From an uncultured Pseudomonadota bacterium (lineage in GTDB: Bacteria; Pseudomonadota; Alphaproteobacteria; RF32; CAG-239), in assembly GCA_949286215.1 (NCBI GenBank), contig CASDYX010000003.1, forward strand, positions 46,537 through 110,536: 64,000 bases of DNA. The letters run 5' to 3'. Made by a program: the position numbers and the translations under genes. The notes under the pieces were generated by a model, which worked only from the letters and a program-made list of their open reading frames with translations, made no database searches and had not been told where the DNA came from. Below are positions 34,665 through 55,625 of this stretch, one piece after another (positions within the stretch are counted from its first letter, which is position 1; each line of letters begins with the position of its first letter).

Positions 34665-37600
34665 ATGAGTTCTAAAAAAAAGCGCTATAATCCATTAAAA
34701 GATGCTTCTGACTACCTCGTAGATGAAGCACAAACTCCTGCGGAAAAAATAATGGATGCAATGCGTCCGTCTCTCCCCATTATCTCCGATGACGAATTAA
34801 AAGACCCCTCACCGATTATCCAACACCTTGAACAAACTCAAGATAAGGAAGACGCTCAAAGTGCCGAAAAAGAACTCTTAGACTTACTTGATAAATACTA
34901 TAACGGTGATCGAGATGTCTCAAAAGAACTCCGTTATAAGAACAAAGCCATTTACAAACAGCTTCTCATCCAAAAATTCAAACAATGGGGCTTAATTTAT
35001 ATCGAAAAGAAGCACTACGCCTTAAGCCGTCCGGAAAAACACTTAATCCGAATTGACTTCTACGGTACGGTCAACAAACCGCGCCCAGACCAAAAAAGTG
35101 AAGCTTACACCCAGAACTCCACCGTTTTTGCTGAAGAACTCAGCCGCAAAGAAAAAAAGAAAGCCAAAAATTCTTCAAACAACAATATTGTCCAAGCAAG
35201 CTCTTCTGAGCCACAAGAAAAAAAGAAATACTCTCCGCAAGATTATGACTTAAGCACCTCCCCTACTTGGAGATTAATGCGCACTTTTCCACGCTTTCAC
35301 ACCATTGAAAACAAAGTCCGTATCCAAATGGCCAAACAAGGACTCAACCCTCAAATCTTGCCTTACTTAAATGTTTATGACTATTCTGATATTTTATACA
35401 ACTATTACCAAAAACCCGAGACCCAAGAAGGCGAGAGTGTCAGAATTTTCTTAGGGGCACGTCAGGCCTTTATCAAAGACCTATTTAGAAAGAATGCTGA
35501 TTGGTTCAGAGATTACTTCAAACGTCACAATTATGATGAACGCTATGCAGAAGCGCTCATTAAATCGGCACAAAGAAAAGGTGTGACAGCAAATATTGAA
35601 TTAAAAGATAATATGCAGGATTATATTTTTGAATATTTGCATAACCACAAACAAAACTTCATCTCGTTTACTCAACAAGAAATACATAACGGCAATCATG
35701 TTACTGGCATTTTAGAAAGGCTGAACAATCCCAATGCCCCTTTAACTGACGAAATGAAAAATTTCATACAAGAAAATGAAACTAAATTTCAAAACCACCT
35801 CAAAAGAAAATACATTACCAGTCACCTACTCAATGCCACTTTTGAAGTATTAAATGACAAAGAAATTCCTTTTTACTTAAAAGAAAACATCAGAAGCTTT
35901 GTTTTATCCTCTCCTGACGAATTTAAAAAATTCATCATACAGAATAACTTCTCGGAAAGAGAATACGAGGTTATGAAAGAAAAAATAAAAAACAAACCTC
36001 CCAGAGAAAAACTGGAAAGCTTAATTAACGCATACGCCAAACAAAACTTAGAAAAATTTCAAAATTTCTTAATCGCTGAAAATCGCGATGAAAATTATAT
36101 CAAATACGCCACCAACTGCTTAAGACCACCACTCGTTCCCGAATATATCAGAGAAAGCCTATATAATTTTATTTTAAGCAAAGAGGATTCACCTTTAAGT
36201 CAACAACTTCAAAAAGAAGGCATTACGCGCGAAAACTTTGCCTCGGTAAAAGAATATATTTTACAGCACCGCAAAGAATACAGTGATTTTTTCAAACAAA
36301 ACAATATTTTAACCAACCAAGAGCTCAACGAGCAATATACGGATATTACAAACTTCATCATAAAAACGCAAAATATGCCTTCTTACATCAAAGATTTTGC
36401 GCAACAATTTATTCGTCGCAACCAAACCGTTTTCCGCTATTGGTATGCAAATTTCAGAGTCCGTCAACACCAAAAAGATGCCGAACAAAAACATAAAAAC
36501 ATTATGGAAAAGGGGCTTTCGGAAACTGATTTCCAAGAAGTATCAACATTTATCAAAGAACGTCTGGATATTTTCAGTGAATTTTGCCAAGGGAAAGGAC
36601 TTAACTTGCCCTCTCAAGAGATTAAGGTAATATTTAATCAGGGAAATTTTCTTAACCCGCAAGTACTCAATAAATCCTCTAACAAAGAAACCCTTAGCTC
36701 AATGCGCAATTTATTGGAACAATTCATTCGTCGCAATGGCTATATTTATCGTAATTCACTCGTTCAGCAACATATTCAAGCCAAAGAGAATGAGGCCGAT
36801 ATCATCTTAAAAAAAATCACCCAACAAGGCATCACCTCAACCACAATGGCCATAGCTCACAAATTTATATTAAACAACAAACCATTGTTTAATAATGATT
36901 TCTACAACAGTAGCGATGCCCAAGATTATAGCCAGGATATTATCTCCAATTTAATGGAGAACACAGCCAATAAAGATATTTTGCAAATTTCCAAAAATTT
37001 CATTTTGCATAACCAAGATGAATTTACAACTTTTATTAAAGAACCGCAAAATATTGAAAATTATATCTCCAATATAACCCAAAAATTAGAAACTTCACAA
37101 AACAAAGGCGATGTTTCTTATTGGGGATTACAATATATCACCCAAAATCAAGATGATTTTATCCAATATCTAGAAGCAGAAAAAATCGGGTCTGAAAATA
37201 TTGAAAACATCAAAAAACAACTTTCAATACAATCATTATCACAAAACATTAAAATGCTATTTGAAAACGACAATTTAGCACTGCAATTTAATGATGGAAA
37301 CACAATAAAAACAACAATTTCCGTACACCACATTAAAGCAGTACAAGATAGTTTTGAGGAAGACATTCCAATTTCGCAAACGCTGCAAGACCAAGAAGAT
37401 TTTAAGCAAGATGCTTTATATGTTCCGAACTTAGCTGCCGCCAACTATTTTAAGAATTTATGCGCTGTCATTGATGACCCCTACCATATTCGCTTTTTCC
37501 ACGGCATGGATAAAACCGAAAAATTTGATAACTTGGAACGTTACATTGGCCGCATTTACCCCCTTAATCAGCATATTGTCTTTTTTGGCGGTCTTGACCT

Positions 37601-37763
37601 GCAAGACCAACTCTCTTATGATTATACTCAAGACGAGCGCACCAAACGTTACCAAAGACATACAGAAAAAATGATGCAATTAAACGAAGAGCAAAGACAA
37701 CTTGATACCTTAAGTCCGGAAATGAGATTTTACATTGTCACCGGCAGCCGCCAAGGACGATAA
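34665..37763 (+). CDS. large helical-repeat protein (1032 aa) with a distinct C-terminal domain of about 120 aa; candidate polymorphic toxin or secreted effector
   Basis: At least 11 tandem repeats of about 40-45 aa with the core F(I/L)xxNxxxFxxF (examples FILHNQDEFTTFIKE, FIQENETKFQNHL, FIIQNNFSEREYE). A non-repeat C-terminal domain is present (HIRFFHGMDKTEKFDNLERYIGRIYPL...). Immediately followed by a SUKH-family immunity-like gene. Confidence 0.5.
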   Translation: MSSKKKRYNPLKDASDYLVDEAQTPAEKIMDAMRPSLPIISDDELKDPSPIIQHLEQTQDKEDAQSAEKELLDLLDKYYNGDRDVSKELRYKNKAIYKQLLIQKFKQWGLIYIEKKHYALSRPEKHLIRIDFYGTVNKPRPDQKSEAYTQNSTVFAEELSRKEKKKAKNSSNNNIVQASSSEPQEKKKYSPQDYDLSTSPTWRLMRTFPRFHTIENKVRIQMAKQGLNPQILPYLNVYDYSDILYNYYQKPETQEGESVRIFLGARQAFIKDLFRKNADWFRDYFKRHNYDERYAEALIKSAQRKGVTANIELKDNMQDYIFEYLHNHKQNFISFTQQEIHNGNHVTGILERLNNPNAPLTDEMKNFIQENETKFQNHLKRKYITSHLLNATFEVLNDKEIPFYLKENIRSFVLSSPDEFKKFIIQNNFSEREYEVMKEKIKNKPPREKLESLINAYAKQNLEKFQNFLIAENRDENYIKYATNCLRPPLVPEYIRESLYNFILSKEDSPLSQQLQKEGITRENFASVKEYILQHRKEYSDFFKQNNILTNQELNEQYTDITNFIIKTQNMPSYIKDFAQQFIRRNQTVFRYWYANFRVRQHQKDAEQKHKNIMEKGLSETDFQEVSTFIKERLDIFSEFCQGKGLNLPSQEIKVIFNQGNFLNPQVLNKSSNKETLSSMRNLLEQFIRRNGYIYRNSLVQQHIQAKENEADIILKKITQQGITSTTMAIAHKFILNNKPLFNNDFYNSSDAQDYSQDIISNLMENTANKDILQISKNFILHNQDEFTTFIKEPQNIENYISNITQKLETSQNKGDVSYWGLQYITQNQDDFIQYLEAEKIGSENIENIKKQLSIQSLSQNIKMLFENDNLALQFNDGNTIKTTISVHHIKAVQDSFEEDIPISQTLQDQEDFKQDALYVPNLAAANYFKNLCAVIDDPYHIRFFHGMDKTEKFDNLERYIGRIYPLNQHIVFFGGLDLQDQLSYDYTQDERTKRYQRHTEKMMQLNEEQRQLDTLSPEMRFYIVTGSRQGR

Positions 37764-37764
37764 A

Positions 37765-38181
37765 ATGCTTACACTTTTAAAACGCATTAAAAACAAAATT
37801 CATCCCCCCAAAGAAGTGCTACTTACTCAAGCTTTAATCTCTCAAGCCTCGCAAATTTTAGCACAACACCACATTGCCTCTATTCCAAGTGATTACCTTC
37901 ATTTTCTGCATTTTTGCAATGGTCTTCAATATCAAGATGCTTGGTTATTAGGAATTTTTGAGGAACATACTCAAATCAATGATATTTGTCGTTTCAACCT
38001 CCAAATCTCTCACCCTTTGTCAAAAGACATTATCATTTTAGGTTTTGATGAATTTGACTTACTTGGATATAATCAAAAATGGAACAGCTATCAAATCATT
38101 GACAAAGACGATTTTGAGGTGCTAGAAGAGTATCAGGACTTAGAAACGGCATTAAATTATATATTGAAGATAGAATCATGA
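37765..38181 (+). CDS. SUKH (SMI1/KNR4) family immunity-like protein
   Basis: Motifs IPSDYLHFLHFCNGL and IIILGFDEFDLLGYNQKWNSYQIIDKDDFE match the SUKH-1 pattern (LPxDYxxFL..NG ... ipia.d..gn.l.ld....yy.D.e). The start at 37765 is 1 nt after the stop of the large gene, with a Shine-Dalgarno aagga 8 nt upstream. The ORF track starts at 37735, inside the previous gene. Confidence 0.55.
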   Translation: MLTLLKRIKNKIHPPKEVLLTQALISQASQILAQHHIASIPSDYLHFLHFCNGLQYQDAWLLGIFEEHTQINDICRFNLQISHPLSKDIIILGFDEFDLLGYNQKWNSYQIIDKDDFEVLEEYQDLETALNYILKIES

Positions 38182-39127: not shown

Positions 39128-39895
39128 ATGACAACCAATATTTCTGAGCTCAACCATACCAATGATTACCTGTTAGATAAAAGGGTAAAAATATTCCAAC
39201 CCGTTAACGGATACCGCGCCTCAACAGACGCTGTATTGGTTTCGTCTCTAATTTCCAAAGTCAAAAGTACAGATAAGATACTAGATGTCGGCTCAGGTAC
39301 GGGAGCAATATCTTTGTGCCTAGCCTCCCGTTTTCAAGCAATCCGCCCACAAATTTTGGGTTTAGAGTTACAAAGCGAACTGTGTATGCTTTCTAACCAA
39401 AGTGCGCAAGCTAATGGGTTTTCAGAATTCTTAAGTTATCAAAATGCAGACATTCGCCAAAAACTAACAAATATAACACCTTGTAGTTTTCAACACGTTA
39501 TTAGCAATCCGCCCTATAGCGAGCACGATATGCCCTCACCCAATCCGAGCAAGGCGGCAGCACATAATCATCAAGGTTTAACTCTAATGGATTGGTTACA
39601 TTTCTGCCTCAAAATGACAGCTCCGCAAGGACATTTATACTTCATCAATCGCGCAGAAGCCATTACCGAAACTCTATCAATATTGCAAGGCAAAGCCGGC
39701 GCCATAAAAATCATTCCGCTTTTTTCCAAACAAGGACAAGTAGCAAAGCGCGTCATGATAACAGCCCAAAAGGCTTCAAAAGCCCCAACACAAATTTTGC
39801 CGGGACTTATCACTCATAACCTTGATGGCACTTACACTCCCCAAACCCAACAAATTTTGCGTGCTGGCAAAGGATTTTTTGATACTTTAGGCTAG
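39128..39895 (+). CDS. SAM-dependent methyltransferase, TrmN6/YfiC-like (N6-adenine class, NPPY motif)
   Basis: SAM-binding LDVGSGTGAISL and catalytic VISNPPY. Confidence 0.55.
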   Translation: MTTNISELNHTNDYLLDKRVKIFQPVNGYRASTDAVLVSSLISKVKSTDKILDVGSGTGAISLCLASRFQAIRPQILGLELQSELCMLSNQSAQANGFSEFLSYQNADIRQKLTNITPCSFQHVISNPPYSEHDMPSPNPSKAAAHNHQGLTLMDWLHFCLKMTAPQGHLYFINRAEAITETLSILQGKAGAIKIIPLFSKQGQVAKRVMITAQKASKAPTQILPGLITHNLDGTYTPQTQQILRAGKGFFDTLG

Positions 39896-41022
39896 AGCCC
39901 AAAAATTTGCATCCGATTTCCGCCTTCTTTTTGAGCCCTTTGCAAAGACAAGATTGCTTGTTCAATCAACTTTTTGGCAGAAGTTGCCGGCTCAGGAAAA
40001 ACACTCACACCGATAGATGCAGAAATTTCATGATTTGTAAAATTATCAGCTACCGGTTCTCTAAAAATAGCTTGAATTTTACTAAGCTCCAATTTTAAGC
40101 TTTCTTCATCCATAACGTCGGGCAACAAAATCCAAAAATGATATTTCAAGCCACTTCCGACCGTATATGTTTTTCGTAAAGTCAGCATCAATTTTTCAGC
40201 CAACTTTCTTAAAATTAAATCATGTAAACCTATAGATTTAAAAGCCTCAAAATTATCCAACGCAATACAAGCCACTGCAATCATATTCCGCTTTTGGCGC
40301 ACATCTTTATAATTTTCGTAATTAACAATAACTTGAACTCTATCTTCAAACAAATAAAAATTCGGCAAACCGGTCAAGGAATCATACATACTAAGAGTGT
40401 TTGCAGCTCGCCTGTTAAGACGCTCACCAATTAAAATAAAAGTAAAATGCTGCTTATCAAAAATATACATAGCATCAAATTTTGCTTTAATAATCTTATG
40501 AGCACCACTAATCATATTAATTTCCATAGCGGCATTATTGGTAAGCATTTCACCTATATTTTTAGCCAAAAAATCCCAATCTTCTTTTGCTACCAATTTC
40601 AAAAATTTTTGATGCAAAATATCATCAATATTTGGACATTCTAACAAATTCAAAAAAGTCTGATTAGCATATTCTATCTTATCATCTCTAATAATAACAA
40701 AAGGTCTATCCGAACGCCGAAAAACTTTATCAATAACATCTCTCAAGCTAACATCAGTTTCATCTAAAAAAGGATCGAGCTGAGGGGCTGACAACTTTTT
40801 TGTAACAACAGCTTTTGAATCGTCTATTTTAGTCAATTGTTCTTGTTTTGCTGTTTTAGAATAATTTAAATCTTCCAGCCCCAAAACATACTCTTCTGAC
40901 AACGGCTCATTATAATCAACAAGAGTTGGGTTTTCATCGTCTAACCCTTCTAAAAAATCAATACTCGTATTATCCAAAACGTCCATACCTTTTTCATAAA
41001 CTTGTGAAAAATACCCAAACAC
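39892..41022 (-). CDS. GGDEF-domain protein with a degenerate active site
   Basis: The C-terminal half has the GGDEF-domain framework (DSLTGLPN..., ACIALDNFEAFKSIGLHDLILRKLA, ASIGVSV). The GG(D/E)EF and DxxHFK motifs are replaced (VGSGLKY, DNFEAF). Confidence 0.5.
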   Translation of the reverse strand: MFGYFSQVYEKGMDVLDNTSIDFLEGLDDENPTLVDYNEPLSEEYVLGLEDLNYSKTAKQEQLTKIDDSKAVVTKKLSAPQLDPFLDETDVSLRDVIDKVFRRSDRPFVIIRDDKIEYANQTFLNLLECPNIDDILHQKFLKLVAKEDWDFLAKNIGEMLTNNAAMEINMISGAHKIIKAKFDAMYIFDKQHFTFILIGERLNRRAANTLSMYDSLTGLPNFYLFEDRVQVIVNYENYKDVRQKRNMIAVACIALDNFEAFKSIGLHDLILRKLAEKLMLTLRKTYTVGSGLKYHFWILLPDVMDEESLKLELSKIQAIFREPVADNFTNHEISASIGVSVFPEPATSAKKLIEQAILSLQRAQKEGGNRMQIFGL

Positions 41023-41131
41023 AAAATATTTTAGCGGTATTTTTTTGAAAAAACAAAAAATATTTGTGTTTTATTAACCCTTATTATTATATAAAAATAA
41101 GAAATGGAATAAAATGAAAGATAATACCTGA

Positions 41132-43186
41132 ATGACTGAAGAAAATACAGAACAGGAAACGCCCCTTGAAAACATTCCCGCTACCGAACCTGAGGTAATA
41201 GAAAATTTCCAGACCGGCAGCAAAGAAAATGTTTACGTTTTAAAGGAAAGATATACTATTGACTTTTCCGCTCCTTTAACGTGGCTAGATAACAACGGCG
41301 CCAAGGCATATAAAGTTGAAGACAAAATAAATGATAAAAAAGAACTATTTGCCCTGATTTGCAACAACTTCACTTCGCCGCGCAGTTCATTATTGCCCTA
41401 CTTAAAATCGATTGATCATCCGTCAATAATGAAACTTGTTGAATATGGCGTAGTCAGTTACGGCAAAGAAAATTCTCGGAATATGGCTTTAATCTACGAG
41501 CTGCCTCAAGGCGGAAAAGTAATTGATGCTCAAGGAGCCTACTCTCTCAAAAATCAACCCGAAAAATTCAAATCATTATTATTATCAATGCTTTCGGCTG
41601 TCGAAACCCTCAAAGGTTATGGGGTAACACATCGCGCCATTAGAGCTGATAATATTTATTACAAAGATGAGACCAGAGAACAATTAGTTCTCGGAGATTG
41701 TCTAGCCTCTTTTCCTGCCTACAACCAACCATCTGCGTTTGAAACCATAGAAAGTCTAATGGCACAAAAAGAAGGAAGAGGTAATGGTTCCGACAAGGAC
41801 GACATTTACGCTGTTGGTGTTTTAGCCTTACAATTACTTCTTGGACATTCCTTTTTTGATGATATGTCGGACAAAGAAGTCCTCAGACTTAAATTAAAGA
41901 AAGGAAGCTACCTCGCATTATTGAGCAATGATAAAATTTCTGCTCAATATGCAACCATCCTCAAAGGATTGTTAAACGACAATGAAGAAGAGCGTTGGAC
42001 CTATCTCCAAACATACAACCTCTTAGAAGGAAAACCTGGAAACACTCCTCAATCCAGCACGGAACGCCCCAAAAAGTCATTAACAATCAATGGTGAAAAA
42101 GTTTACAACATAACAGAAGTTGCTTACGCTCTTCTACAAAATCCCGAAGAAGGATATGACTTATTAAAATCTGGGAAAATTACTGATTGGATTAAAAACG
42201 GTCTGGAAAACGAAAAACTCAATACTCAAATTGAGAAGTTAATTCATACCAACTCGGAAAACACCTCCAGCCGAGAACTATTAATTTCCAAGCTGTGCAT
42301 AATGTTAGCCCCTCATCTGCCTCTAAAGTACAAAACCCTATGGCTTTTTCCGGCAGGCATTCCCAAATCCATATTTTTAGCCATAAAAAATAAAGAAAAT
42401 TTAAGTATTTATTACGATTTATTCAATTCAGACTTAATAAAATTATGGTATCAAGAACAAAGTAATGTCAGAGCACCAGCTAACAGCGGAGAATTTAAAA
42501 GTTACATCAGTCGCCGCGATATGGGCTATGGAATTGACCGTATTATGTACGATTTTGATGAAGATTTACCCTGCATCAGCCCCTTACTTGGCGAAGAATT
42601 TGTAAACAGCGCTCCCCGCATTTTAAGAGCTTTAGACAACACCTATGCTCACACCAAAGTAATGTCCATGCCTTATGATCGCAACATAATGGCTTACCTT
42701 CGCTGTAAAATGGGCAAAAAAATCGATGGAATTTTAACCGATATCAATACCGGACGAGAAGCTTTGCAAGCCAGTGCTATTTTGCGCCTATACACAGATA
42801 TGCAAAATAAATACGGTCCGTCACAGCTTCCAAATTTAGCCAAATGGCTGGTAAGTGCTTGCATGTTGACAATAAAGAGTTATCACAACGTCAAATATCA
42901 AAAATATTTGGAACGAGAAGTTCTTAAAATACACAAGAATGGCAAACTTCATGAAATTACGGAAATAATTGAAAATGAAGAAGCCAGACAAAAAGACAGC
43001 ATCGACTATGCCAACGCGCTAAAGAATGCAAATTTATTAATAAGCGAAAAAAATAATTTACAAAACAATTCTGCCAAATGGGATGACGAAGCCCGAGAAG
43101 TTGCAATGCGTTTTGCAAATATTTTAGCTCTGCTAACAATGATTGCTTCTTTTGTTCTTAACCTTTTCTTTTGGATATTAAAATGA
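41132..43186 (+). CDS. eukaryotic-like protein kinase fold protein (predicted pseudokinase) with a C-terminal TM helix
   Basis: The order of kinase subdomains is recognisable: HPSIMKLVEYG; hinge ALIYELPQGG; catalytic loop GVTHRAIRADNIYY (HRD-to-HRA); LVLGDCLAS (DFG-to-DCL); DIYAVGVLALQLLLG (subdomain IX). No glycine-rich loop. C-terminal hydrophobic helix. Confidence 0.5.
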   Translation: MTEENTEQETPLENIPATEPEVIENFQTGSKENVYVLKERYTIDFSAPLTWLDNNGAKAYKVEDKINDKKELFALICNNFTSPRSSLLPYLKSIDHPSIMKLVEYGVVSYGKENSRNMALIYELPQGGKVIDAQGAYSLKNQPEKFKSLLLSMLSAVETLKGYGVTHRAIRADNIYYKDETREQLVLGDCLASFPAYNQPSAFETIESLMAQKEGRGNGSDKDDIYAVGVLALQLLLGHSFFDDMSDKEVLRLKLKKGSYLALLSNDKISAQYATILKGLLNDNEEERWTYLQTYNLLEGKPGNTPQSSTERPKKSLTINGEKVYNITEVAYALLQNPEEGYDLLKSGKITDWIKNGLENEKLNTQIEKLIHTNSENTSSRELLISKLCIMLAPHLPLKYKTLWLFPAGIPKSIFLAIKNKENLSIYYDLFNSDLIKLWYQEQSNVRAPANSGEFKSYISRRDMGYGIDRIMYDFDEDLPCISPLLGEEFVNSAPRILRALDNTYAHTKVMSMPYDRNIMAYLRCKMGKKIDGILTDINTGREALQASAILRLYTDMQNKYGPSQLPNLAKWLVSACMLTIKSYHNVKYQKYLEREVLKIHKNGKLHEITEIIENEEARQKDSIDYANALKNANLLISEKNNLQNNSAKWDDEAREVAMRFANILALLTMIASFVLNLFFWILK

Positions 43187-43686
43187 GCAAAATAAACCCT
43201 GTCAGACCTATCCGAAAACTCCCCTCACAAAGAGGAAATAGTTTTCGTTTAAATATTTTTCAAAAAGTATTATTAACTCTGGCGCTTTTAATTGCGGTAG
43301 TAACCACTCTTCCGGTAATGGTTGTTTTACTCATTGGATTACTTCCAACATTTACAATCATGATAACCGACAAAAACAACACCAACAAACTCATCATTGT
43401 CGGCTGTTTTAATCTGGCTGGTGTATTTATTTACCTATTCCATGTCATAAGCAACTTTACCATTCGCGACGCCTTTTTTATCTTCAGCGACATATTTAAT
43501 TTAATCATAATGCTTGGCTCTGCCGGATTAGGATTAATTGTCTATTTAGAAGTCCCCAATCTTTTCATTTACATTTATAAAATAATGGCACAAAAACGCC
43601 TCAAAACCATAGATGAGCAACTAAACAAATTAGCAGAAGACTGGGGTGAAGGAATTAAAGGTAACGGAGCCACGCCGACTGTTTAA
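43171..43686 (+). CDS. polytopic membrane protein (171 aa, 4 predicted TM)
   Basis: Overlaps the kinase-like gene by 16 nt. Hydrophobic segments are present. Confidence 0.4.
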   Translation: MDIKMSKINPVRPIRKLPSQRGNSFRLNIFQKVLLTLALLIAVVTTLPVMVVLLIGLLPTFTIMITDKNNTNKLIIVGCFNLAGVFIYLFHVISNFTIRDAFFIFSDIFNLIIMLGSAGLGLIVYLEVPNLFIYIYKIMAQKRLKTIDEQLNKLAEDWGEGIKGNGATPTV

Positions 43687-43712: not shown

Positions 43713-44600
43713 TCATATCTCAAAAATAGCTTTTCGGATTTTCTTAATAGAATTTAGTTCTATTTGTCGCACCCTTTCTTTTGAAATTGCATAAAGTTTG
43801 CTCAAATCATCCAAAGTCACGGCTTTTTCCACCAACCGACGCTTAAATAAAATATCTTTTTCTCTCGGATTCAGGCAACTAAGTGCTTTCTGAAATAAGC
43901 GTTTTCGATACAGAAAAGTTTCTGAATAGGCTAATTTCTCTTCCTGATTAGGTTTTTTATCAGAAATAAAATCTATCCATTCACTACCGCTATCTGAAGA
44001 CGTATCAATTAAAGTATTAAGCGACCCATCATGAGCTTTCAAGCGCATATTCATATCCGTCACTTCTTGAACACTCACATCAAGGCTTTCAGCAATATCT
44101 CCTAAAATTTTTTGAGAGAGTTCACGATCATCCATAAGGTTCAGTTGATTTTTTATTTTTCGCAAATTAAAGAAAAGTTTTTTTTGTGCAGCTGTCGTTC
44201 CTATTTTCACCAACGACCAAGAATTTAAGATATATTTTTGAATAGAGGCCTTAATCCACCATAAAGCATAAGTTGAGAACCGAAATCCTTTATTCGGCTC
44301 AAATTTATTCACGGCATAGAGTAAACCGATATTTCCTTCTGAAATCATTTCACTAAGAGGCAAACCATAACCTCGATATTTTGCCACCACCTTGACAACC
44401 AGCCTTAAATGAGAATCAACCAATTGCTGAGCAATTTTGGGGTCACGGCTTTTTTTATATTCAACTGCCAAAGCATATTCTTTTTCCGGAGAAAGAATAG
44501 GAAATTTGCGAATACTCTGTAAATAGCGCACCAGATTTATTTCCGGTGAAAAGTCAAGTCCGTTCAGAGTGAAGTCTTTATCCATAATAGCCTCCCTCAA
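43713..44600 (-). CDS. rpoH: RNA polymerase sigma-32 factor
   Basis: RpoH box QRKLFFNLRKIK plus sigma70 regions 2 and 4. The rluD-rpoH arrangement is conserved in alphaproteobacteria. Confidence 0.9.
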   Translation of the reverse strand: MREAIMDKDFTLNGLDFSPEINLVRYLQSIRKFPILSPEKEYALAVEYKKSRDPKIAQQLVDSHLRLVVKVVAKYRGYGLPLSEMISEGNIGLLYAVNKFEPNKGFRFSTYALWWIKASIQKYILNSWSLVKIGTTAAQKKLFFNLRKIKNQLNLMDDRELSQKILGDIAESLDVSVQEVTDMNMRLKAHDGSLNTLIDTSSDSGSEWIDFISDKKPNQEEKLAYSETFLYRKRLFQKALSCLNPREKDILFKRRLVEKAVTLDDLSKLYAISKERVRQIELNSIKKIRKAIFEI

Positions 44601-45752: not shown

Positions 45753-46034
45753 ATGGATAAATTAAAATTAATCAAAACGATTGTCTTTTTTATAACCTTT
45801 TTATTAGTCATAGGGAGTATAAGTCTTTTAGGAATTATTTATAAAAAAGCAACCCACAAAACAGAATTGGCCTCAAGCACAATTAACCTTCAGCAAGAAA
45901 AAGGAAGTGAAATATCCTCATTTAAAGTAGAAAACGGAACAATATATCTTTTGGTAAAAGGCTCCAGCCAACCCGATCGAATTATCATCCTTCGTGAAGA
46001 TAGCGCTGAACCGCAACAAATTCATCTAAATTAG
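45753..46034 (+). CDS. small membrane-anchored protein (93 aa); first gene of the T4CP-associated cluster
   Basis: Single N-terminal TM helix. Divergent from rluD. Confidence 0.35.
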   Translation: MDKLKLIKTIVFFITFLLVIGSISLLGIIYKKATHKTELASSTINLQQEKGSEISSFKVENGTIYLLVKGSSQPDRIIILREDSAEPQQIHLN

Positions 46035-46046
46035 AGGGGTATTTTT

Positions 46047-47084
46047 ATGAGTGAGAATCAACAACCCAAAAAGGTATTCAAAAAAATAAAACACAAAAGA
46101 CCAATGTCCCAAGGTTCAAGAATTCCTCCCACGATGTCTGTTCCCGCATCAACCGAAGCAGACATTAAAGCCCTATTGGCAGAAGACACGCCGCCTCAAG
46201 AGCAAAAGGTCTCTTCCACTCCCCAAAACAATGATGAAGAAGACGAATTTGAGCGTTTACTTAATGAATTCATCAGTGCCGAATTAGATGATTCATTAGA
46301 AAATGCCCAAGAAAATTTGGAAAATGTAAAAAACGGCGACATCCAAGAACAAAAACAAACTCTTCCTTTCAGCAACACCGATGAAGAAAACGCCAACCTT
46401 CTGGAAGATCCTGAAAAATCTCTTTATCGAGCTTATCAAAATTACTTTTTTGCGATTCGAGCAATGACTGAGAGTAAAAATATTACTCCTACATCTCCCT
46501 CTCTCACCGCCGAAAATTTTTACCCTCACTACAAACCACGCCTTGGCATTCGCATTTCCAAAGAAATTATGCAAGGTTGGGATATAATGCTCAAAGTATT
46601 TCCTCAAGATTTAGCATCATTAAATCCCGGAGGAACTGATGATGAGCTTTTAGACTTTGCGGAACAAGCCAATGATGAAAATTTACAATTAGCCGTAATT
46701 TCTTATGTTGAGATTTTAATTGAAATGGAAGGCTGCGATATTCAATATGAAACACGCAAACTTAAAGCCGAGCGTCGTAAAATTGAAAAAGAGATTTACG
46801 AAGCCCATCAAGCGCGCGTAGAACGCAGCCAAAAATATATAGAAGCCATCAAAAACAAAGAATTTCCAATAGATGCCGAAAGATTGGTCAAAAACTTTTT
46901 CAAAACCTCAAATAAAGATGCCGAAGGAGCTTATAAAATGCTAACCACCAATCCGGCAACTTTTTCGCCAATTGAAATCAGCAAAATCAGGCCTAGACTC
47001 TTTGGGCTCATTAAAGTTACACCACAAGATGGCATTAGAGTAAATCGCGAAATTGGAGAATTTATAAAAAAACTAAAAGCATAA
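46047..47084 (+). CDS. acidic hypothetical protein (345 aa)
   Basis: ORF in a tight co-directional cluster. No recognised domain. Confidence 0.4.
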   Translation: MSENQQPKKVFKKIKHKRPMSQGSRIPPTMSVPASTEADIKALLAEDTPPQEQKVSSTPQNNDEEDEFERLLNEFISAELDDSLENAQENLENVKNGDIQEQKQTLPFSNTDEENANLLEDPEKSLYRAYQNYFFAIRAMTESKNITPTSPSLTAENFYPHYKPRLGIRISKEIMQGWDIMLKVFPQDLASLNPGGTDDELLDFAEQANDENLQLAVISYVEILIEMEGCDIQYETRKLKAERRKIEKEIYEAHQARVERSQKYIEAIKNKEFPIDAERLVKNFFKTSNKDAEGAYKMLTTNPATFSPIEISKIRPRLFGLIKVTPQDGIRVNREIGEFIKKLKA

Positions 47085-47154
47085 ATGTTTTTACAAAAAT
47101 ATAGACAAAAAACATTTTTAATGCTACACTAAAGTTAATGAACAAGATTTTAAG

Positions 47155-48618
47155 GTGAAGAATATGGCAGATACCCCTAAAACAGTAAGCGTAAACGAAG
47201 CATCCGCTCCTCAAGCCCCACAACCGGTACAACAACCGGCACCTCAACCTACGCCTCAAAACAATTCTGAGCCGCAAAGAACCATTGCCTTATCACAAAA
47301 CCCCAAGAAAGAAGCTCAAACCTTCCAAGGAATGACTGTTGCTCAAAAATTAAACTATCTTAATATTAAAGAAAAGCGCGGAATTTTAACTCCTGATGAA
47401 CGTAAGCAACAGGAAGAATGCCGCGAGCAATTAGCTAAAGAACAAGAAGGTGATGAAGGTGAAATCACTCCTGAAGACGGAACCAAGGTCGGCGATAAAG
47501 ATGATGAACCCAAAGACCTCTTCAAAGAACAAGACATCATTCAATATATGTATAATGAGTGGCTGTTAGGCGGCGCCAACTGGCTCTACAAAAAAACCTA
47601 CAAACAAGTTGACAAGATGTATGAGTCATTCAAAAATCGTTGTGCTCAAGCTAAAATGGATGCCCAAAAACGCAAAAATGCAACTTATGACACCATTACC
47701 ACCCGTGATAACATTGATGACAAAGCAGTCAAACTTTATGATGGGCAAAAGGCCTCTATCGACAAAGGCAAGGAAGGACTTAAAGCTGTTTTAGAAGACA
47801 TTAAAAACGGCAATATTGATGCCTCCAAAGCCACAGGCTTAACCAAACGCCTTATGCAAGAATTGCCTGAAGGCAAACGTCAACAATTTTGCACCGAAGC
47901 ACAAGCCATGATTGAAAACTTGGCTGAGAATATGAAAACCATTCATTTCGTTGCAGGTCAACTTGCTCGTGCCCAAATGGCTGAAAGCATATGTATCAAC
48001 CAAAACGCTTTCAAAAATTCCGTGCCGGCCAATGTTTTTGAGGCCATGGAAAAACGCAACGCCTTAGCTATTGCCGCCCAAATGGATGAATGGCAAAAAC
48101 AAGGCAAGAATCCGGCTAAACTCATTCAAAAATTAAAAGATGACGTTGAAAAAGCCAACAAATTTGCCGACAAGCAATACAAGAAAGAAAAATTTGATGA
48201 AGCTGGCAAAAAAGGTAAAGAAAACAAGACGCTCCGTAAAATTAACGAAACTTTAGGTATTCCCTCTGAAGAAGTCACTAAACCACAACACTACGCACCA
48301 CAAACCATGTTGCAGCATTTGATTGTATCAAACAACTTGGAAATGGGAATAACAGAAAAACTAAACAAACTAAATGGCCGTCAAATGGTTCAGGCGGCAC
48401 GGAATGACAACTATCAAGACAGGAGAGCCAATCTGCATAACCGTGTAGCTAACGCTGCACGATATAGTGAAATGATACGTTCTCGTGTCAACCCGAATGG
48501 TCTTCTTGTAATGGATACGCAAGGACAACGTCGCGCGCAACAACTCCAAGGCGTACGCCCGCAATTTAATATGGATGCCTACCGCATGGCTCAACAGCAA
48601 CAAGGAGCCACTAAGTAA
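47155..48618 (+). CDS. hypothetical protein (487 aa), Pro/Gln-rich N-terminus, predicted coiled coil
   Basis: ORF in a tight co-directional cluster. Low-complexity PQ-rich N-terminus. Confidence 0.4.
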   Translation: MKNMADTPKTVSVNEASAPQAPQPVQQPAPQPTPQNNSEPQRTIALSQNPKKEAQTFQGMTVAQKLNYLNIKEKRGILTPDERKQQEECREQLAKEQEGDEGEITPEDGTKVGDKDDEPKDLFKEQDIIQYMYNEWLLGGANWLYKKTYKQVDKMYESFKNRCAQAKMDAQKRKNATYDTITTRDNIDDKAVKLYDGQKASIDKGKEGLKAVLEDIKNGNIDASKATGLTKRLMQELPEGKRQQFCTEAQAMIENLAENMKTIHFVAGQLARAQMAESICINQNAFKNSVPANVFEAMEKRNALAIAAQMDEWQKQGKNPAKLIQKLKDDVEKANKFADKQYKKEKFDEAGKKGKENKTLRKINETLGIPSEEVTKPQHYAPQTMLQHLIVSNNLEMGITEKLNKLNGRQMVQAARNDNYQDRRANLHNRVANAARYSEMIRSRVNPNGLLVMDTQGQRRAQQLQGVRPQFNMDAYRMAQQQQGATK

Positions 48619-48620
48619 CC

Positions 48621-49118
48621 ATGCTCAAAAAGCTTCTGAAATTTTGCAAATGGCTTATGGTCGGAATAATCTGGACGTATGTATTTTTATACGCCAGCTT
48701 ATTTTTCACCAGTACAATTTGGAATTTCAACTACCTATCACTCATTGATTGGGAAATTATTTCAGCTTATTGGAATCAAGGCGGCAGCATTAAAGAAGCC
48801 ACTGATTACGGTCTATTTCTGACCTTAATTTTACTCATTCCGTTCTGGATTTTAGGCTGGAGATTTTTCTATCATCGAGATTTCATAGCCCTCATACTAG
48901 CTCCCATAAACTGGTATAATCAAAAACAAATAAAAAAATATGGTCAAAACGCCTCACGTATTGTTATAAAGAATATGGGAAGCACAGGCAAAAAAATTAA
49001 TCCCGAAGAAGTAATTGAAGCAAAATTAAAAGATTTCAAATCGAATATGGAGCACCAAGAAAAAAACTCAGATATCTTAAGAGAAAAGCTCAAAGAGAAA
49101 TTTGATAAAAAAAATTAA
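48621..49118 (+). CDS. membrane protein paralogous to the N-terminal transmembrane domain of the VirD4-like coupling protein
   Basis: TM1, aromatic periplasmic loop and TM2 (WNFNYLSLIDWEIISAYWNQGG...LFLTLILLIPFWILGW) align by eye with the same region of 49178 and of the VirD4-like protein (YWNWLKQISNY...LWLPILPFISLPFG). No ATPase domain. Confidence 0.45.
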   Translation: MLKKLLKFCKWLMVGIIWTYVFLYASLFFTSTIWNFNYLSLIDWEIISAYWNQGGSIKEATDYGLFLTLILLIPFWILGWRFFYHRDFIALILAPINWYNQKQIKKYGQNASRIVIKNMGSTGKKINPEEVIEAKLKDFKSNMEHQEKNSDILREKLKEKFDKKN

Positions 49119-49177
49119 ATAAAGAATTAACCAATAAGAGATAAACTTAACGCAAAACAAATGGGAGAAAATAACCT

Positions 49178-50488
49178 TTGAAACCCTTTTTAATAACAGT
49201 CCGCATTATATTTGTAGGCATCTTCTGGAGCATATTTTTTCTGGAAGGGATAAGGGTTATTATGCTCACCAACTGGCGTTTTGATATTTTCCGTTCCCGC
49301 CATTGGGAGCATTTATACAATCTATGGTACCAAGGTTGGACCATACAAGCTCCCAAAGAATGGGCATTTATCTTAATCATTTTAACATTTATTCCTTTAT
49401 GGTTAACCGGCTGGGCTGCTTTAAGCTTGATAGAGTGGGATAAACTATTGGTTAAATTGGTCGTTTACCCAATAAAACTCTTTCGAAAACTATTCTACAA
49501 ACAAGTAACTGTCATTGCGACTAAAAAGCATGGTCAACCAGTAAAAAAGAAAAGATCTTACAAAGAAATAAGACCTCGTAGTATCCGAGCTCCGATTGAT
49601 GACCGCATAGAAGATGCACTGCCTCGTCCGACAACATTGAGCAACCAAGTCACCAAAACACATAGCGCTCCCAAAATAACACCGCCTACTTTAGCCGCTT
49701 TGAGTTCTCCTCCTCCGAGTGAGCCTAAAACTTTTGATCATTCATTATTCCAATTTGACGATGGCGAAAGTGACGATTTCGACTTTAATTTTGATGCTTT
49801 TGATACTCCGCCTGCACCTCAAAAAGAAGAAAGTCCTAAGTCCGAGGAAAAAAGAGCTCCCCGAGAAAAAGAAAAAAACAAAGAAAATCGGGACTTTAGA
49901 GATACGAGAGAAAAGAAAGACTTTAGCAAAAGCCCTAAAGAGGGACGTAAACCTCAAGCTAATAATCGCGGAGAAAATCAAGTTCAGCGTGGCGGCTCTC
50001 TTATGGATGTTCTCAAACAAAAAGGCTATGAAATCATTACCGGAGCAACCCTTGCCAATAATTTAATAGACTTTATCGGTGTTGCCGATAAGAAAATTTG
50101 TGTTTGCCTGCTTGATAAAGAGCCCGGAGATTGGTTAGCCGATGAAGAAAGATTTAACGACGAGGAACCTCTCTGGTTTTCGGAAAGCAGCCATAGAATT
50201 TCTCCGGTCAGAAAAATTACGTTATCCTGCCAAGCTTTAGAAGAAAAATTAAAAGAAGCAGATTTAAATTTCAGCGTCATACCTTATGTCATTATTCAAC
50301 TCGGAAACATCATCAATGCCGAAGATATGTTTGAAATCTGGGATGATATGAAAGTTAATGTAACTCGTATTGACAGAGGTACTCCAAAAGAAATTAAGCT
50401 TTTTGCCAAAACTTTGGAAGAAGCTGAAAATCACATAGATAACGATAAATTTGAAAAGCTCAAAAAATTAATTCGTAATATAAAGTAA
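49178..50488 (+). CDS. membrane protein with a T4CP-N-terminal-like TM domain, a Pro/Glu/Lys-rich linker and a C-terminal NERD-like (nuclease-related) domain
   Basis: The N-terminus is paralogous to 48621 and to the VirD4 TM domain (HWEHLYNLWYQGW...FILIILTFIPLWLTGW). The C-terminal block GATLANNLIDFIGVADKKICVCLLDKEPG resembles the NERD core (IDHvvi..Givvievk). A low-complexity charged linker of about 150 aa separates them. Confidence 0.45.
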   Translation: MKPFLITVRIIFVGIFWSIFFLEGIRVIMLTNWRFDIFRSRHWEHLYNLWYQGWTIQAPKEWAFILIILTFIPLWLTGWAALSLIEWDKLLVKLVVYPIKLFRKLFYKQVTVIATKKHGQPVKKKRSYKEIRPRSIRAPIDDRIEDALPRPTTLSNQVTKTHSAPKITPPTLAALSSPPPSEPKTFDHSLFQFDDGESDDFDFNFDAFDTPPAPQKEESPKSEEKRAPREKEKNKENRDFRDTREKKDFSKSPKEGRKPQANNRGENQVQRGGSLMDVLKQKGYEIITGATLANNLIDFIGVADKKICVCLLDKEPGDWLADEERFNDEEPLWFSESSHRISPVRKITLSCQALEEKLKEADLNFSVIPYVIIQLGNIINAEDMFEIWDDMKVNVTRIDRGTPKEIKLFAKTLEEAENHIDNDKFEKLKKLIRNIK

Positions 50489-50511
50489 AAATAACCTAAA
50501 AGAGTAAGAAG

Positions 50512-54365: not shown

Positions 54366-55625
54366 ATGATAACCTTTAACAAATTAGCATTTGTACACAA
54401 AGCTCTATATGCACTCTGTGGCTTAGGGCTTGTTTTATTGACCACAAAACCGGCAACTGCATCTACATCATCCATCATCATTGATGCCGAAAGCGGAGAT
54501 ATTTTATCATCTTCCAACGCCGACGAATTACGTTATCCTGCTTCTCTTACCAAAGTTATGACCTTATACATAACTTTTGACGCTCTCAATAAAGGAATCA
54601 TTAAATTAGACGATGACTTAAAAGTAAGTCGTCACGCAGCCAACATGGCTCCATCCAGATTAGGTCTTCGCCCCGGAGAAACGGTCAAAGTAAAAACTTG
54701 TATTGAAGCTTTAATTGTTAAATCCGCCAATGATTGCGCTACTGTTTTAGCAGAAAACCTTGGTTATAGCGAAAAGAACTTTGCCCAAACAATGACGCAA
54801 GTTGCCAAAGAATTAGGAATGAAAAACACCACTTTCCGTAACGCCAACGGATTGCCTAACAAAGCTCAAAAAACCACGGCACGCGATATGGCTTTGCTTG
54901 GTGCTGCAATGTATCACCACTTTCCGCAATACTACAAACTATTTTCATTGAAAAAATTTACCTATGAAGGCAAAACCATCTACACCCACAATAATATCTT
55001 AAAAACCTTCGAAGGTGCCGATGGTATGAAAACCGGCTTTACCAACGCCGCTGGCTTTAACATTATTACCTCTGCTCAACGTGATGGACATCGCGTCATT
55101 GCTGTTACCATGGGACACAACACCGCCAAAGAGCGTGACCGCCATGTTGCCAGAATGATGGATAAAGGTCTAAAAAGATTAGCCTTAAACGACCGTTTCA
55201 AAGATTCCAACATGTATGCTAACTTAGAGAGCAATAAGGTCATTAAAGAAGAAAACACCGCTCAAACCGCCGCAATTACACCGGCCAACAAAAAAACCGA
55301 TTGGGAAACCTCCTCTTCCAAAGAAGAAAATACTCAAGATGATAAAGCACAATGGGGAATTCAAGTTGGTGCCTTTTCAAACTATTCCAAAGCCAGAAGT
55401 TATGCTCTGAAAATTAAATCCGAAGCTAAAAAATTAGCCTCCAATCCAATAGATATTGAGCCTGTAGCAAATGGTTCTGCAATCATTTATCGCTCAAAGA
55501 TTGTCGGCATGGGAAAATCAACTGCGGATAAAGCCTGCCAGAACTTGAAACGCAAAAATAAATCGTGTATCGTAGTCGCTATAAAGAACGATAACTCACT
55601 CTTGTTAGCGAATAGTCAATACTAA
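54366..55625 (+). CDS. D-alanyl-D-alanine carboxypeptidase (PBP5/6-like, S11) with a C-terminal SPOR domain
   Basis: Signal peptide; SxxK ASLTKVMT; SxN KSAND; KTG KTGFT. The C-terminal segment of about 80 aa resembles SPOR (WGIQVGAFSNYSKARSYALKI...). Confidence 0.8.
   Translation: MITFNKLAFVHKALYALCGLGLVLLTTKPATASTSSIIIDAESGDILSSSNADELRYPASLTKVMTLYITFDALNKGIIKLDDDLKVSRHAANMAPSRLGLRPGETVKVKTCIEALIVKSANDCATVLAENLGYSEKNFAQTMTQVAKELGMKNTTFRNANGLPNKAQKTTARDMALLGAAMYHHFPQYYKLFSLKKFTYEGKTIYTHNNILKTFEGADGMKTGFTNAAGFNIITSAQRDGHRVIAVTMGHNTAKERDRHVARMMDKGLKRLALNDRFKDSNMYANLESNKVIKEENTAQTAAITPANKKTDWETSSSKEENTQDDKAQWGIQVGAFSNYSKARSYALKIKSEAKKLASNPIDIEPVANGSAIIYRSKIVGMGKSTADKACQNLKRKNKSCIVVAIKNDNSLLLANSQY

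Follow-up and report, generated by a model that had tools for sequence, protein, structure and literature searches.

A predicted tail-anchored pseudokinase family encoded beside a polytopic membrane protein in gut and free-living Alphaproteobacteria

Known bacterial pseudokinases and the PK684 protein

A 2025 atlas of more than 300,000 bacterial serine/threonine kinases (STKs) distinguished 42 families, 7 of which are pseudokinase families, referred to as ActPs1 to ActPs3, GLW, CP1, DYD, and DLHK (bioRxiv 10.1101/2025.01.12.632604; PMC12599244). A protein is defined as a pseudokinase if at least one of the β3 lysine, the HRD aspartate, and the DFG aspartate is missing (PMC12599244). Bacterial pseudokinases are almost unexplored experimentally. 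Here, we describe a gene in a 64,000-nucleotide stretch of contig CASDYX010000003.1 (positions 46,537 to 110,536, hereafter the window) from an uncultured alphaproteobacterium. The product of the gene, PK684, has a Hanks-type kinase fold, a large C-terminal domain (the C-domain), and a single terminal transmembrane (TM) helix, and the gene overlaps with the next gene, which codes for a polytopic membrane protein. By the accepted definition, PK684 is a pseudokinase, and its kinase fold is predicted to be incapable of canonical phosphotransfer. The features of the gene and its product are as follows, in window coordinates.

41132..43186, + strand: PK684 gene, coding for a predicted tail-anchored pseudokinase of 684 amino acids (open reading frame, ORF, with an ATG start; full-length homologs with 51% to 95% identity)
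41132..41230, + strand: residues 1 to 33, N-terminus (acidic, disordered, poorly conserved)
41231..42031, + strand: residues 34 to 300, Hanks-type kinase fold, the putative pseudokinase domain (Pfam Pkinase, Foldseek, family-wide residue loss)
41630..41653, + strand: catalytic-loop remnant H167-R-A-I-R-A-D-N174 (lines up with HRDLKPEN)
41693..41701, + strand: DFG-position motif G188-D189-C190 (lines up with (V)DFG)
41774..41788, + strand: family-specific insert G215-R-G-N-G219, after the APE-like ETIE motif and before helix F (conservation in 243 members)
42077..43081, + strand: residues 316 to 650, C-domain (2 β-hairpin-plus-helix modules, followed by helical bundles and by a long helix)
42524..42586, + strand: residues 465 to 485, GYGIDRIMYDFDEDLPCISPL, the most invariant motif of the family (conservation in 243 members)
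43112..43180, + strand: residues 661 to 683, single C-terminal TM helix, the predicted tail anchor (hydropathy; helical in the model)

Judged on their described motifs, host taxa, and domain partners, none of the 7 pseudokinase families appears to accommodate PK684 and its homologs, and none of them shares the motifs, host range, or architecture of PK684; a place in one of the 35 "canonical" families is formally possible. The nearest of the 7 is the GLW family, which is proteobacterial and has a C-terminal TM region (PMC12599244). In GLW proteins, the HRD motif is replaced by GLW, the β3 motif reads LLLL/W and the DFG aspartate is absent in 100% of the members, whereas the corresponding motifs in the PK684 family are HRA, FALI, and GD/EC. 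Furthermore, no additional conserved domain is described for GLW proteins in the review (PMC12599244), whereas PK684 has a C-domain of 335 amino acids. The DLHK proteins retain the HRD aspartate and lack a TM segment, and the CP1 proteins also lack a TM segment and are linked to COG3899; PK684, in contrast, has no HRD aspartate and no COG3899-like or other Pfam domain, and ends in a TM tail anchor. The DYD proteins have a β3 arginine and occur in Actinobacteria and Firmicutes, and the ActPs1 to ActPs3 proteins are actinobacterial, whereas the β3 position is hydrophobic and the hosts are alphaproteobacterial in the PK684 family.

The nearest functional analogies are 2 membrane-embedded pseudokinase hubs. 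The ActPs3 domain of mycobacterial MviN/MurJ (PMC12599244) resembles PK684, as predicted here, in being an intracellular pseudokinase within an inner-membrane protein, and it is thought to act by interactions rather than catalysis. It is fused to a flippase with 14 TM helices and has the motifs VALT and Lsidhpsr, no DFG motif, and a shortened activation loop, whereas PK684 has a full-length activation segment, a single C-terminal TM helix, and a putative membrane partner that is a separate protein. Likewise, in YukC/EssB of the type VIIb secretion system (PMC9600267), a single TM helix tethers a pseudokinase fold that resides in the cytoplasm, and the protein serves as the structural hub of a membrane complex, but it is encoded in a type VII secretion gene cluster in Firmicutes and has a sizeable extracellular domain after the TM helix, neither of which applies to PK684. 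In architecture, the closest analogy is the PknB-type arrangement, in which a cytoplasmic N-terminal kinase fold is followed by a membrane helix. PknB-type kinases have a PASTA-like extracytoplasmic sensor domain, whereas PK684 ends one residue past the TM helix, contains a 335-amino-acid domain between the kinase fold and the helix, and belongs to a family that has lost all catalytic hallmarks except the asparagine and the acid at the DFG position. A tail anchor without an ectodomain, a C-domain without a known relative, and a separate partner with 4 TM segments distinguish PK684 from MviN/MurJ, YukC/EssB, and PknB.

Kinase fold and catalytic residues

Residues 34 to 300 of PK684 represent a genuine Hanks-type kinase fold, as had been proposed for the N-terminus in a sequence-only reading of the locus. 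The Pfam profile PF00069 (Pkinase) matched residues 90 to 294 with a score of 46.3 bits compared to a gathering score of 31.7 (E = 4.8e-12, profile positions 51 to 257 of 263). An AlphaFold2 model built on 31 homologs had a mean predicted local distance difference test (pLDDT) score of 84.7 and a predicted TM-score (pTM) of 0.79, and a Foldseek search with this model yielded 1,762 PDB chains at E ≤ 0.001, with target-normalized TM-scores of 0.70 to 0.72 to CaMKI, DCLK1, and ULK1. Since these alignments cover about 270 to 290 columns, the part of the N-lobe that falls outside the Pfam alignment is also kinase-like. The model is bilobal, with an N-lobe of 5 strands (β1, residues 41 to 48; β2, 57 to 64; β3, 72 to 77; β4, 102 to 110; β5, 115 to 123) and a short helix C (85 to 93), followed by helix E (143 to 159) and a helical C-lobe. 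Two of the checks that the earlier reading had put forward, a kinase-profile search and a structure prediction, returned a kinase family and a kinase-like fold, including the N-lobe. Among 19 diverse family members, Pkinase was matched by 18 at E ≤ 0.1, some of them weakly, and no other Pfam family was identified.

In a phmmer search against the PDB sequences, the best matches were to calcium-dependent protein kinases (CDPKs) and calmodulin-dependent kinases (CaMKs), with 3lij at the top (E = 3e-11), and the sequence of StkP was matched weakly (E = 0.003). The eukaryotic CaMK and CDPK proteins are the closest solved sequences and structures, but the identities are only 17% to 22%, these kinases are active with all catalytic motifs in place, and outside the kinase domain they are unrelated to PK684. 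The term "eukaryotic-like" fits the fold of PK684 only. The conservation of individual residues was counted in an alignment of 243 full-length members that are 22% to 50% identical to PK684; the correspondence of the β3 lysine, the αC glutamate, and the insert length to protein kinase A (PKA), and that of R84 to bacterial STKs, was taken from our own alignment. R84, located at the start of helix C and kept in 237 members, probably corresponds to the "RF-motif" arginine of bacterial STKs (R55 in PknB), which was recognized as a hallmark of these kinases by the Kannan laboratory and is also present in apicomplexan CDPKs (bioRxiv 10.1101/2025.01.12.632604). If so, the kinase domain of PK684 would be of bacterial ancestry, and the shared arginine may explain why CDPKs are at the top of the PDB matches.

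The catalytic residues have been lost throughout the family. It had been noted from the sequence that PK684 has no glycine-rich loop, that the catalytic-loop aspartate is replaced, and that DFG reads DCL, and these assignments hold. The β1-β2 segment reads PLTWLDNNG, without a GxGxxG motif, and in the phmmer alignment to 3lij the segments HRAIRADN and LGDCLAS are placed opposite HRDLKPEN and IVDFGLS. The HRD aspartate is A169 in PK684, and this position is alanine in 162 members, serine in 26, glycine in 23, asparagine in 18, and aspartate in none. The position of the β3 lysine (VAIK; K72 in PKA) is I76, with valine, isoleucine, leucine, or alanine in 240 members and lysine in none, and the αC glutamate position is L87, with glutamate in only 9. 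By these alignments, the loss of the β3 lysine, the αC glutamate, the glycine-rich loop, and the HRD aspartate is a property of the whole family, observed in all members examined. Two of the 3 residues in the defining triad, the β3 lysine and the HRD aspartate, are thus absent from every member, while the ratio of nonsynonymous to synonymous substitution rates (dN/dS) for the domain is 0.04.

It was also considered in the earlier reading that the aspartate of the "RAD" sequence, D173, may substitute for the missing catalytic aspartate. However, because position 173 is not conserved (aspartate in 91 members, threonine in 88, serine in 20, and asparagine in 15), D173 cannot be a catalytic base shared by the whole family. 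Nor was a relocated lysine conserved among the 243 members, with R, K, G, N, or H at the position of K38 and A, E, V, or L at that of K61.

Other parts of the domain are strongly conserved. In the catalytic loop, H167 is kept in 233 members, R171 in 212, and N174 in 239, and in the DFG region G188 is kept in 240 and C190 in 210, while position 189 is aspartate in 156 and glutamate in 81. The metal-binding pair, consisting of the acid at the DFG position and the asparagine of HRDxxxxN, is thereby retained in 237 and 239 members, respectively. A59 and A74, which are present in 233 and 220 members, correspond to the 2 small residues that sandwich the adenine in active kinases. The floor of the adenine pocket, at the position of L173 in PKA, is always aromatic (phenylalanine in 161, tyrosine in 80), and such a side chain could either stack on a nucleotide or fill the pocket. 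The activation segment is of full length and conserved (QP, ETIE) and the G215-R-G-x-G insert, about 5 residues longer than in PKA, has R216 in 227, G217 in 232, and G219 in 228 members. In the core of the C-lobe, D224 and D283 are present in all 243 members and R288 in 239. The replacement of the phenylalanine in DFG with cysteine would break the regulatory spine.

The retained residues raise the question of whether the family comprises atypical enzymes, in which the kinase-like cleft, with R40, R84, and R171 as substitute basic residues, or a site in the C-domain catalyzes a noncanonical reaction, so that "pseudokinase" would be a misnomer. Precedents for atypical kinase folds include SelO, which performs AMPylation, SidJ, which performs glutamylation, and WNK and POMK, in which the lysine has been relocated. 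The conservation of Asn174, Asp/Glu189, Arg171, His167, Ala59, and Ala74 is consistent with such an activity, as is the absolute conservation of the polar C-domain residues R470, Y473, C481, S483, D516, and Q558, and several bacterial "pseudokinase" families are predicted to still bind ATP (PMC12599244). However, the 4 canonical elements are gone together in all members, no relocated lysine is conserved, the aromatic floor could occupy the adenine pocket, and the cysteine in DFG would disrupt the spine. We regard an atypical enzyme as possible but on the whole unlikely. Of the earlier suggestion of a pseudokinase or an atypical kinase, the first part is supported and extends across the family, and the second part stands as a rival explanation.

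The C-domain, the family, and the partner protein

The kinase fold of PK684 is followed by a short linker, the C-domain of about 335 residues, a long helix, and the hydrophobic helix F661-L683. In the Kyte-Doolittle profile of PK684, only this last segment rises above 1.6, which agrees with the terminal TM helix proposed previously. It is followed by a single residue (K684), and all family members have the same C-terminal ending. At the other end, the MAE/MTE start lines up across 31 sequences, and the first 33 residues have a pLDDT of about 30, a net charge of −8, and a majority fraction of 0.30. The earlier reading had suggested a search for secretion signals; no signal peptide was found at this acidic N-terminus.

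The region between the kinase fold and the TM helix had been described as about 400 amino acids of all-helical structure. It is indeed mostly helical, but residues 316 to 650 also contain 2 short β-hairpins. When modeled alone, residues 306 to 650 gave a pLDDT of 88.0. No Pfam match to the C-domain was obtained for PK684 or for 18 other diverse members, and the C-domain profile had no match among the PDB sequences at E ≤ 10. The most invariant positions of PK684 are located in this domain and include G467 and Y473 (243 of 243 members), R470 and S483 (242), and C481 (237) in the central motif, as well as W353 (241), D516 (243), Q558 (241), and G604 (242), such that a signature of the form GxGxxRxxY...CxS...D...Q...G is found across the family. 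With so many invariant polar residues, the domain may hold a site for ligand binding or catalysis. The 2 β-hairpin-plus-helix modules (residues 328 to 356 and 412 to 442; window positions ~42113 to 42199 and ~42365 to 42457) show a weak in-register alignment to each other (hhalign E = 0.0035, probability 9%) and may have originated by an ancient internal duplication.

The family is large. A word-indexed search identified full-length homologs in at least 318 clusters (at 90% identity); these are 51% to 95% identical to PK684, and none of them is named. In a genome scan in which each GTDB species was represented once, 123 genomes had a relative. The 80 loci retrieved from these 123 genomes were all from gut or rumen metagenome-assembled genomes (MAGs), labeled as Alphaproteobacteria, "Azospirillum sp.", "Azospirillaceae", or Candidatus Scatocola, the last of which is placed by NCBI in Rhodospirillaceae incertae sedis. 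We take this clade of Ca. Scatocola-type MAGs to be the GTDB order RF32. When a profile of the C-domain was scored against 1.84 billion representative sequences, 1,212 clusters (at 50% identity) were obtained at E ≤ 0.001 and 1,012 at E ≤ 1e-10. In the best 150 of the 1,212 clusters, the C-domain was located at residues ~290 to 680 of proteins of ~660 to 790 amino acids, and shorter family entries were N-terminally truncated fragments that start inside the kinase C-lobe.

Full-length homologs with the same architecture were also identified in cultivated free-living Rhodospirillales in the broad sense, including Rhodospirillum rubrum (CKO38_06350), Pararhodospirillum photometricum, P. oryzae, Phaeovibrio sulfidiphilus, Roseospira goensis, Caenispirillum salinarum (C882_3748), C. 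bisanense, Oleispirillum naphthae, Telmatospirillum, Tistlia consotensis, Niveispirillum, and Thalassobaculum fulvum. A scan of metagenomes yielded another 80 loci, which originated from soil, peat, lake, and Tara Oceans samples. The named members are annotated only as "hypothetical protein" or "protein kinase family protein", and literature searches for a characterized member yielded none. Across the gut species, PK684 is 47% to 57% identical, which is similar to the neighboring housekeeping enzymes, whereas a neighboring protein of 1,032 amino acids is only 24% to 32% identical. Compared to 2 relatives of about 90% identity, the dN/dS ratio was 0.03 to 0.04 overall, 0.04 in the kinase domain, 0.02 in the C-domain, and about 0.4 in the N-terminal tail, these values being approximate because dS is near saturation. 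By these estimates, both the kinase domain and the C-domain are under strong purifying selection. The family is large and apparently undescribed, with a fixed architecture and vertical inheritance. PK684 belongs to the core genes of an uncultivated lineage of Alphaproteobacteria commonly found in the guts of humans, mice, chickens, and ruminants, and since the hosts of the family include the genetically tractable Rhodospirillum rubrum and Niveispirillum (the latter a relative of Azospirillum), its role is directly testable.

These data bear on the earlier proposal that PK684 is a host-manipulating effector. In such a role, the eukaryotic-like kinase-fold protein would be secreted or translocated, for example as a type IV substrate, and would insert its tail anchor into host membranes. 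The closest relatives reside in organisms from animal guts, the best PDB sequence matches are to eukaryotic CDPK and CaMK kinases, a gene for a VirD4/TraG-type coupling protein is located 7 kb downstream (50512-52746), and tail-anchored effectors exist in Legionella. However, effector kinases would be expected to be confined to host-associated lineages, to vary in location, and to evolve rapidly, and none of this was observed for the PK684 family: orthologs with the same architecture and gene neighbors are present in phototrophs with a free-living lifestyle as well as in bacteria from soil, peat, and the sea, the chromosomal synteny (hisZ-purA, pair, rpoH-rluD) is conserved, and the dN/dS ratio is about 0.04. 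In addition, PK684 has no signal peptide, its translation is coupled to that of a polytopic membrane protein, and the helix C arginine shared with CDPKs, which may explain the CDPK matches, is a hallmark of bacterial STKs (bioRxiv 10.1101/2025.01.12.632604). A host-directed role, which we consider extremely unlikely, was therefore rejected on the basis of distribution, synteny, and evolutionary rate, and finding a eukaryotic-like kinase fold in a bacterium from the gut does not constitute evidence for a host-directed effector.

A role as an anti-phage defense kinase, as suggested by matches to the models for MADS Mad6, Mokosh MkoA, and PD-T4-6, has a probability close to nil. The best of these matches (PADLOC MkoA, E = 3.9e-13; PADLOC mad6, E = 1.2e-11; NCBIfam MAD6, E = 1.3e-10) cover only the generic kinase domain, and the NCBIfam MAD6 score of 40.5 bits is far below the cut-off of 460. 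Moreover, PK684 is a conserved single core gene surrounded by housekeeping genes rather than part of a variable island, and the family cut-offs together with this genomic context effectively rule out a defense role.

The gene immediately downstream of PK684 codes for the putative partner protein.

43183..43686, + strand: partner gene, coding for a polytopic membrane protein of 167 amino acids with about 4 TM segments and a predicted cytoplasmic C-terminal helix (ATGA overlap, adjacency, homology)

The stop codon of PK684 overlaps with the start codon of the partner gene in the sequence ATGA at positions 43183 to 43186, which points to translational coupling. The partner has a basic N-terminus, about 4 hydrophobic segments, and an amphipathic C-terminal helix. 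A homolog of the partner was encoded directly downstream in 83 of 84 loci in the gut clade and in 68 of 71 other loci with enough flanking DNA (151 of 155 in total). The partner in Oleispirillum is 33% identical to that in the window (E = 3e-19), and an alignment of 9 distant versions showed the conserved motifs LPT..LPT..VDR, NFxG, YGAAGxGW, and LxExWG. No Pfam family was matched by the partner, and its only match in the PDB was a nonsignificant one to a VKOR-like protein (E = 0.096).

The interpretation that we favor, with measured confidence, is that PK684 is the bacterium's own C-tail-anchored inner-membrane protein, facing the cytoplasm, and that it acts together with the partner as a nonphosphorylating scaffold or switch encoded by an ancient, vertically inherited operon of 2 genes that occurs in Rhodospirillales-like Alphaproteobacteria. 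Instead of phosphorylating proteins, the kinase-like domain would serve as a scaffold or as a conformational switch, and a nucleotide or a different ligand may gate it. Together, the tail anchor of PK684 and the TM helices of the partner would form one inner-membrane complex, and because PK684 has no extracytoplasmic domain, the partner may supply the membrane-embedded element for sensing or anchoring, comparable to the accessory membrane proteins of intramembrane-sensing kinases. The invariant C-domain would then be the output or ligand-binding module.

Several observations weigh against this interpretation. The physical interaction between PK684 and the partner is deduced from gene order and translational coupling alone, and the near-invariant Asn174, Asp/Glu189, Arg171, and Ala59/Ala74 would also fit nucleotide binding or noncanonical catalysis. 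Furthermore, the invariant R470, Y473, C481, S483, D516, and Q558 in the C-domain resemble an active site as much as an interaction surface, and neither Pfam nor the PDB provides an annotated family or a solved structure as a functional handle on the C-domain or the partner. More speculatively, and with a low probability, the pair could represent an ancient, order-wide inner-membrane machine of a new kind, in which the C-domain is a new ligand-binding or catalytic domain that is controlled by a nucleotide-gated pseudokinase and coupled to the membrane by the 4-TM subunit. The idea of a new domain of this kind is based on the invariance of the 6 polar residues listed above combined with the lack of a relative in Pfam or the PDB. 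If correct, the pair would constitute a new signaling or enzymatic system, universal in Rhodospirillales-like Alphaproteobacteria including the abundant gut clade, and a C-domain that proved to be a new enzyme or ligand sensor would substantially raise the importance of the PK684 family.

Genomic neighborhood

The gene pair is flanked by a divergently transcribed gene for a GGDEF-domain protein upstream and by the gene for the heat-shock sigma factor downstream.

39892..41022, − strand: gene for a protein with PAS and degenerate GGDEF domains, divergent from PK684 (Pfam GGDEF, E = 3.7e-15; weak PAS match)
41023..41131, no strand assigned: AT-rich divergent intergenic region of 109 bp, presumed to hold the promoters of both genes (sequence)
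43713..44600, − strand: rpoH (sigma-32), convergent with the pair (NCBIfam sigma-32, 336 bits)

Outside the gut clade, the usual gene order is hisZ-purA, the gene pair, and convergent rpoH-rluD, with purA located upstream of the pair in 38 of 54 loci. In the gut clade, the PAS-GGDEF gene adjoins PK684 in place of purA in 83 of 84 loci, and it is a fixed neighbor in this clade only. In all 78 orthologs of the PAS-GGDEF protein in the gut clade, the A-site of the GGDEF domain reads (A/S)(R/S)GLK and the RxxD I-site has been lost. We noted that 2 putative pseudoenzymes, PK684 and the degenerate GGDEF protein, thereby face each other across the intergenic region of 109 bp. A consensus promoter scan found no sigma-70-like site in this region (41023..41131), and the promoter and terminator scans of the locus, which placed no hit in this region, gave counts no higher than those in shuffled sequence.

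Within the gut clade, the divergent PAS-GGDEF protein would be a likely additional interactor in the complex proposed above. It has also been considered, as an addition to the scaffold or switch interpretation, that the pair and the PAS-GGDEF protein form a signaling module tied to cyclic di-GMP or GTP. This is suggested by the near-constant presence of the GGDEF gene upstream in the gut clade, by Niveispirillum, where the pair has been relocated to a site between a GGDEF-EAL gene and a GGDEF gene, and by 2 additional metagenomic loci with a GGDEF gene within 3.5 kb. However, only 3 of 64 loci had a GGDEF gene within this distance of the pair (88 loci outside the gut clade were examined), and with both the A-site and the I-site lost, the gut-clade protein probably neither makes cyclic di-GMP nor binds it in the classical manner. 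A general link of the pair to cyclic di-GMP was therefore reduced to a clade-specific idea, which we consider improbable.

The end of rpoH is located 26 nucleotides from the stop codon of the partner gene, and rpoH is adjacent to the pair in 58 of 84 gut loci and in 35 of 48 other loci. The gap between the stop codons of the 2 genes is 26 to 74 nucleotides in loci L086, L089, and L090, and the genes overlap by 28 nucleotides in L091. A regulatory link of the pair to RpoH, again as an addition to the preferred interpretation, would be in line with this convergent arrangement and with the near lack of intergenic space. Yet purA and hisZ on the other side are equally conserved, so that synteny inherited across the entire block would account for the arrangement. 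In many genomes, the adjacency to rpoH has been lost while the pair has been kept, and no sequence feature connects RpoH with PK684 or the partner. We consider such a link very unlikely. It was also noted that the only terminator-like hairpin downstream of rpoH is located inside the coding region of the partner (43600-43587, − strand), and that convergent transcription may run into the opposite gene.

Further downstream in the same block, a small DUF6476-like membrane protein is encoded at 45753-46034 (+ strand; E = 0.003, below the threshold), and a gene for such a protein follows rluD in 58 of 84 gut-clade loci. The same place is occupied in distant Rhodospirillales by small unannotated genes, often followed by a Prok-JAB gene. 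The gene after rluD is thus another deeply conserved, uncharacterized gene of the block.

The window represents the core chromosome of an anaerobe and contains genes for PFOR, SpoT/Rel, MipZ, PBP5-SPOR, phosphoglucomutase, and leucyl aminopeptidase. PFOR, the bifunctional SpoT/Rel, PBP5 with a SPOR domain, and MipZ are encoded at window positions 24451-28020, 14519-16702 (− strand), and 54366-56425, and because these 4 genes are present, the organism appears to be an anaerobic alphaproteobacterium with Caulobacter-type control of the division site.

The 1,032-amino-acid protein (gene at 34665-37763, + strand) has no Pfam match and diverges much faster than its neighbors (24% to 32% identity across the gut clade). 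The 3' end of its gene overlaps with an ORF coding for 148 amino acids (37735-38181, + strand). The C-terminus of the larger protein holds the sequence "..SVHHIKAVQD..", which resembles an HNH/AHH motif by eye, and the smaller one has a weak match to SMI1_KNR4/SUKH-1 (E = 0.057). Since SUKH proteins are typical immunity proteins, the 2 genes may code for a polymorphic toxin and its immunity protein. Finally, 4 ORFs without Pfam matches (345, 487, 165, and 436 amino acids) are arranged in a row at the start of the region 46047-52746 (+ strand) and followed by the gene for the VirD4/TraG-type coupling protein at 50512-52746. The 345-amino-acid ORF is syntenic in 56 of 84 gut-clade loci; the 487-amino-acid ORF is syntenic in only 18 and diverges rapidly (23% to 31% identity).

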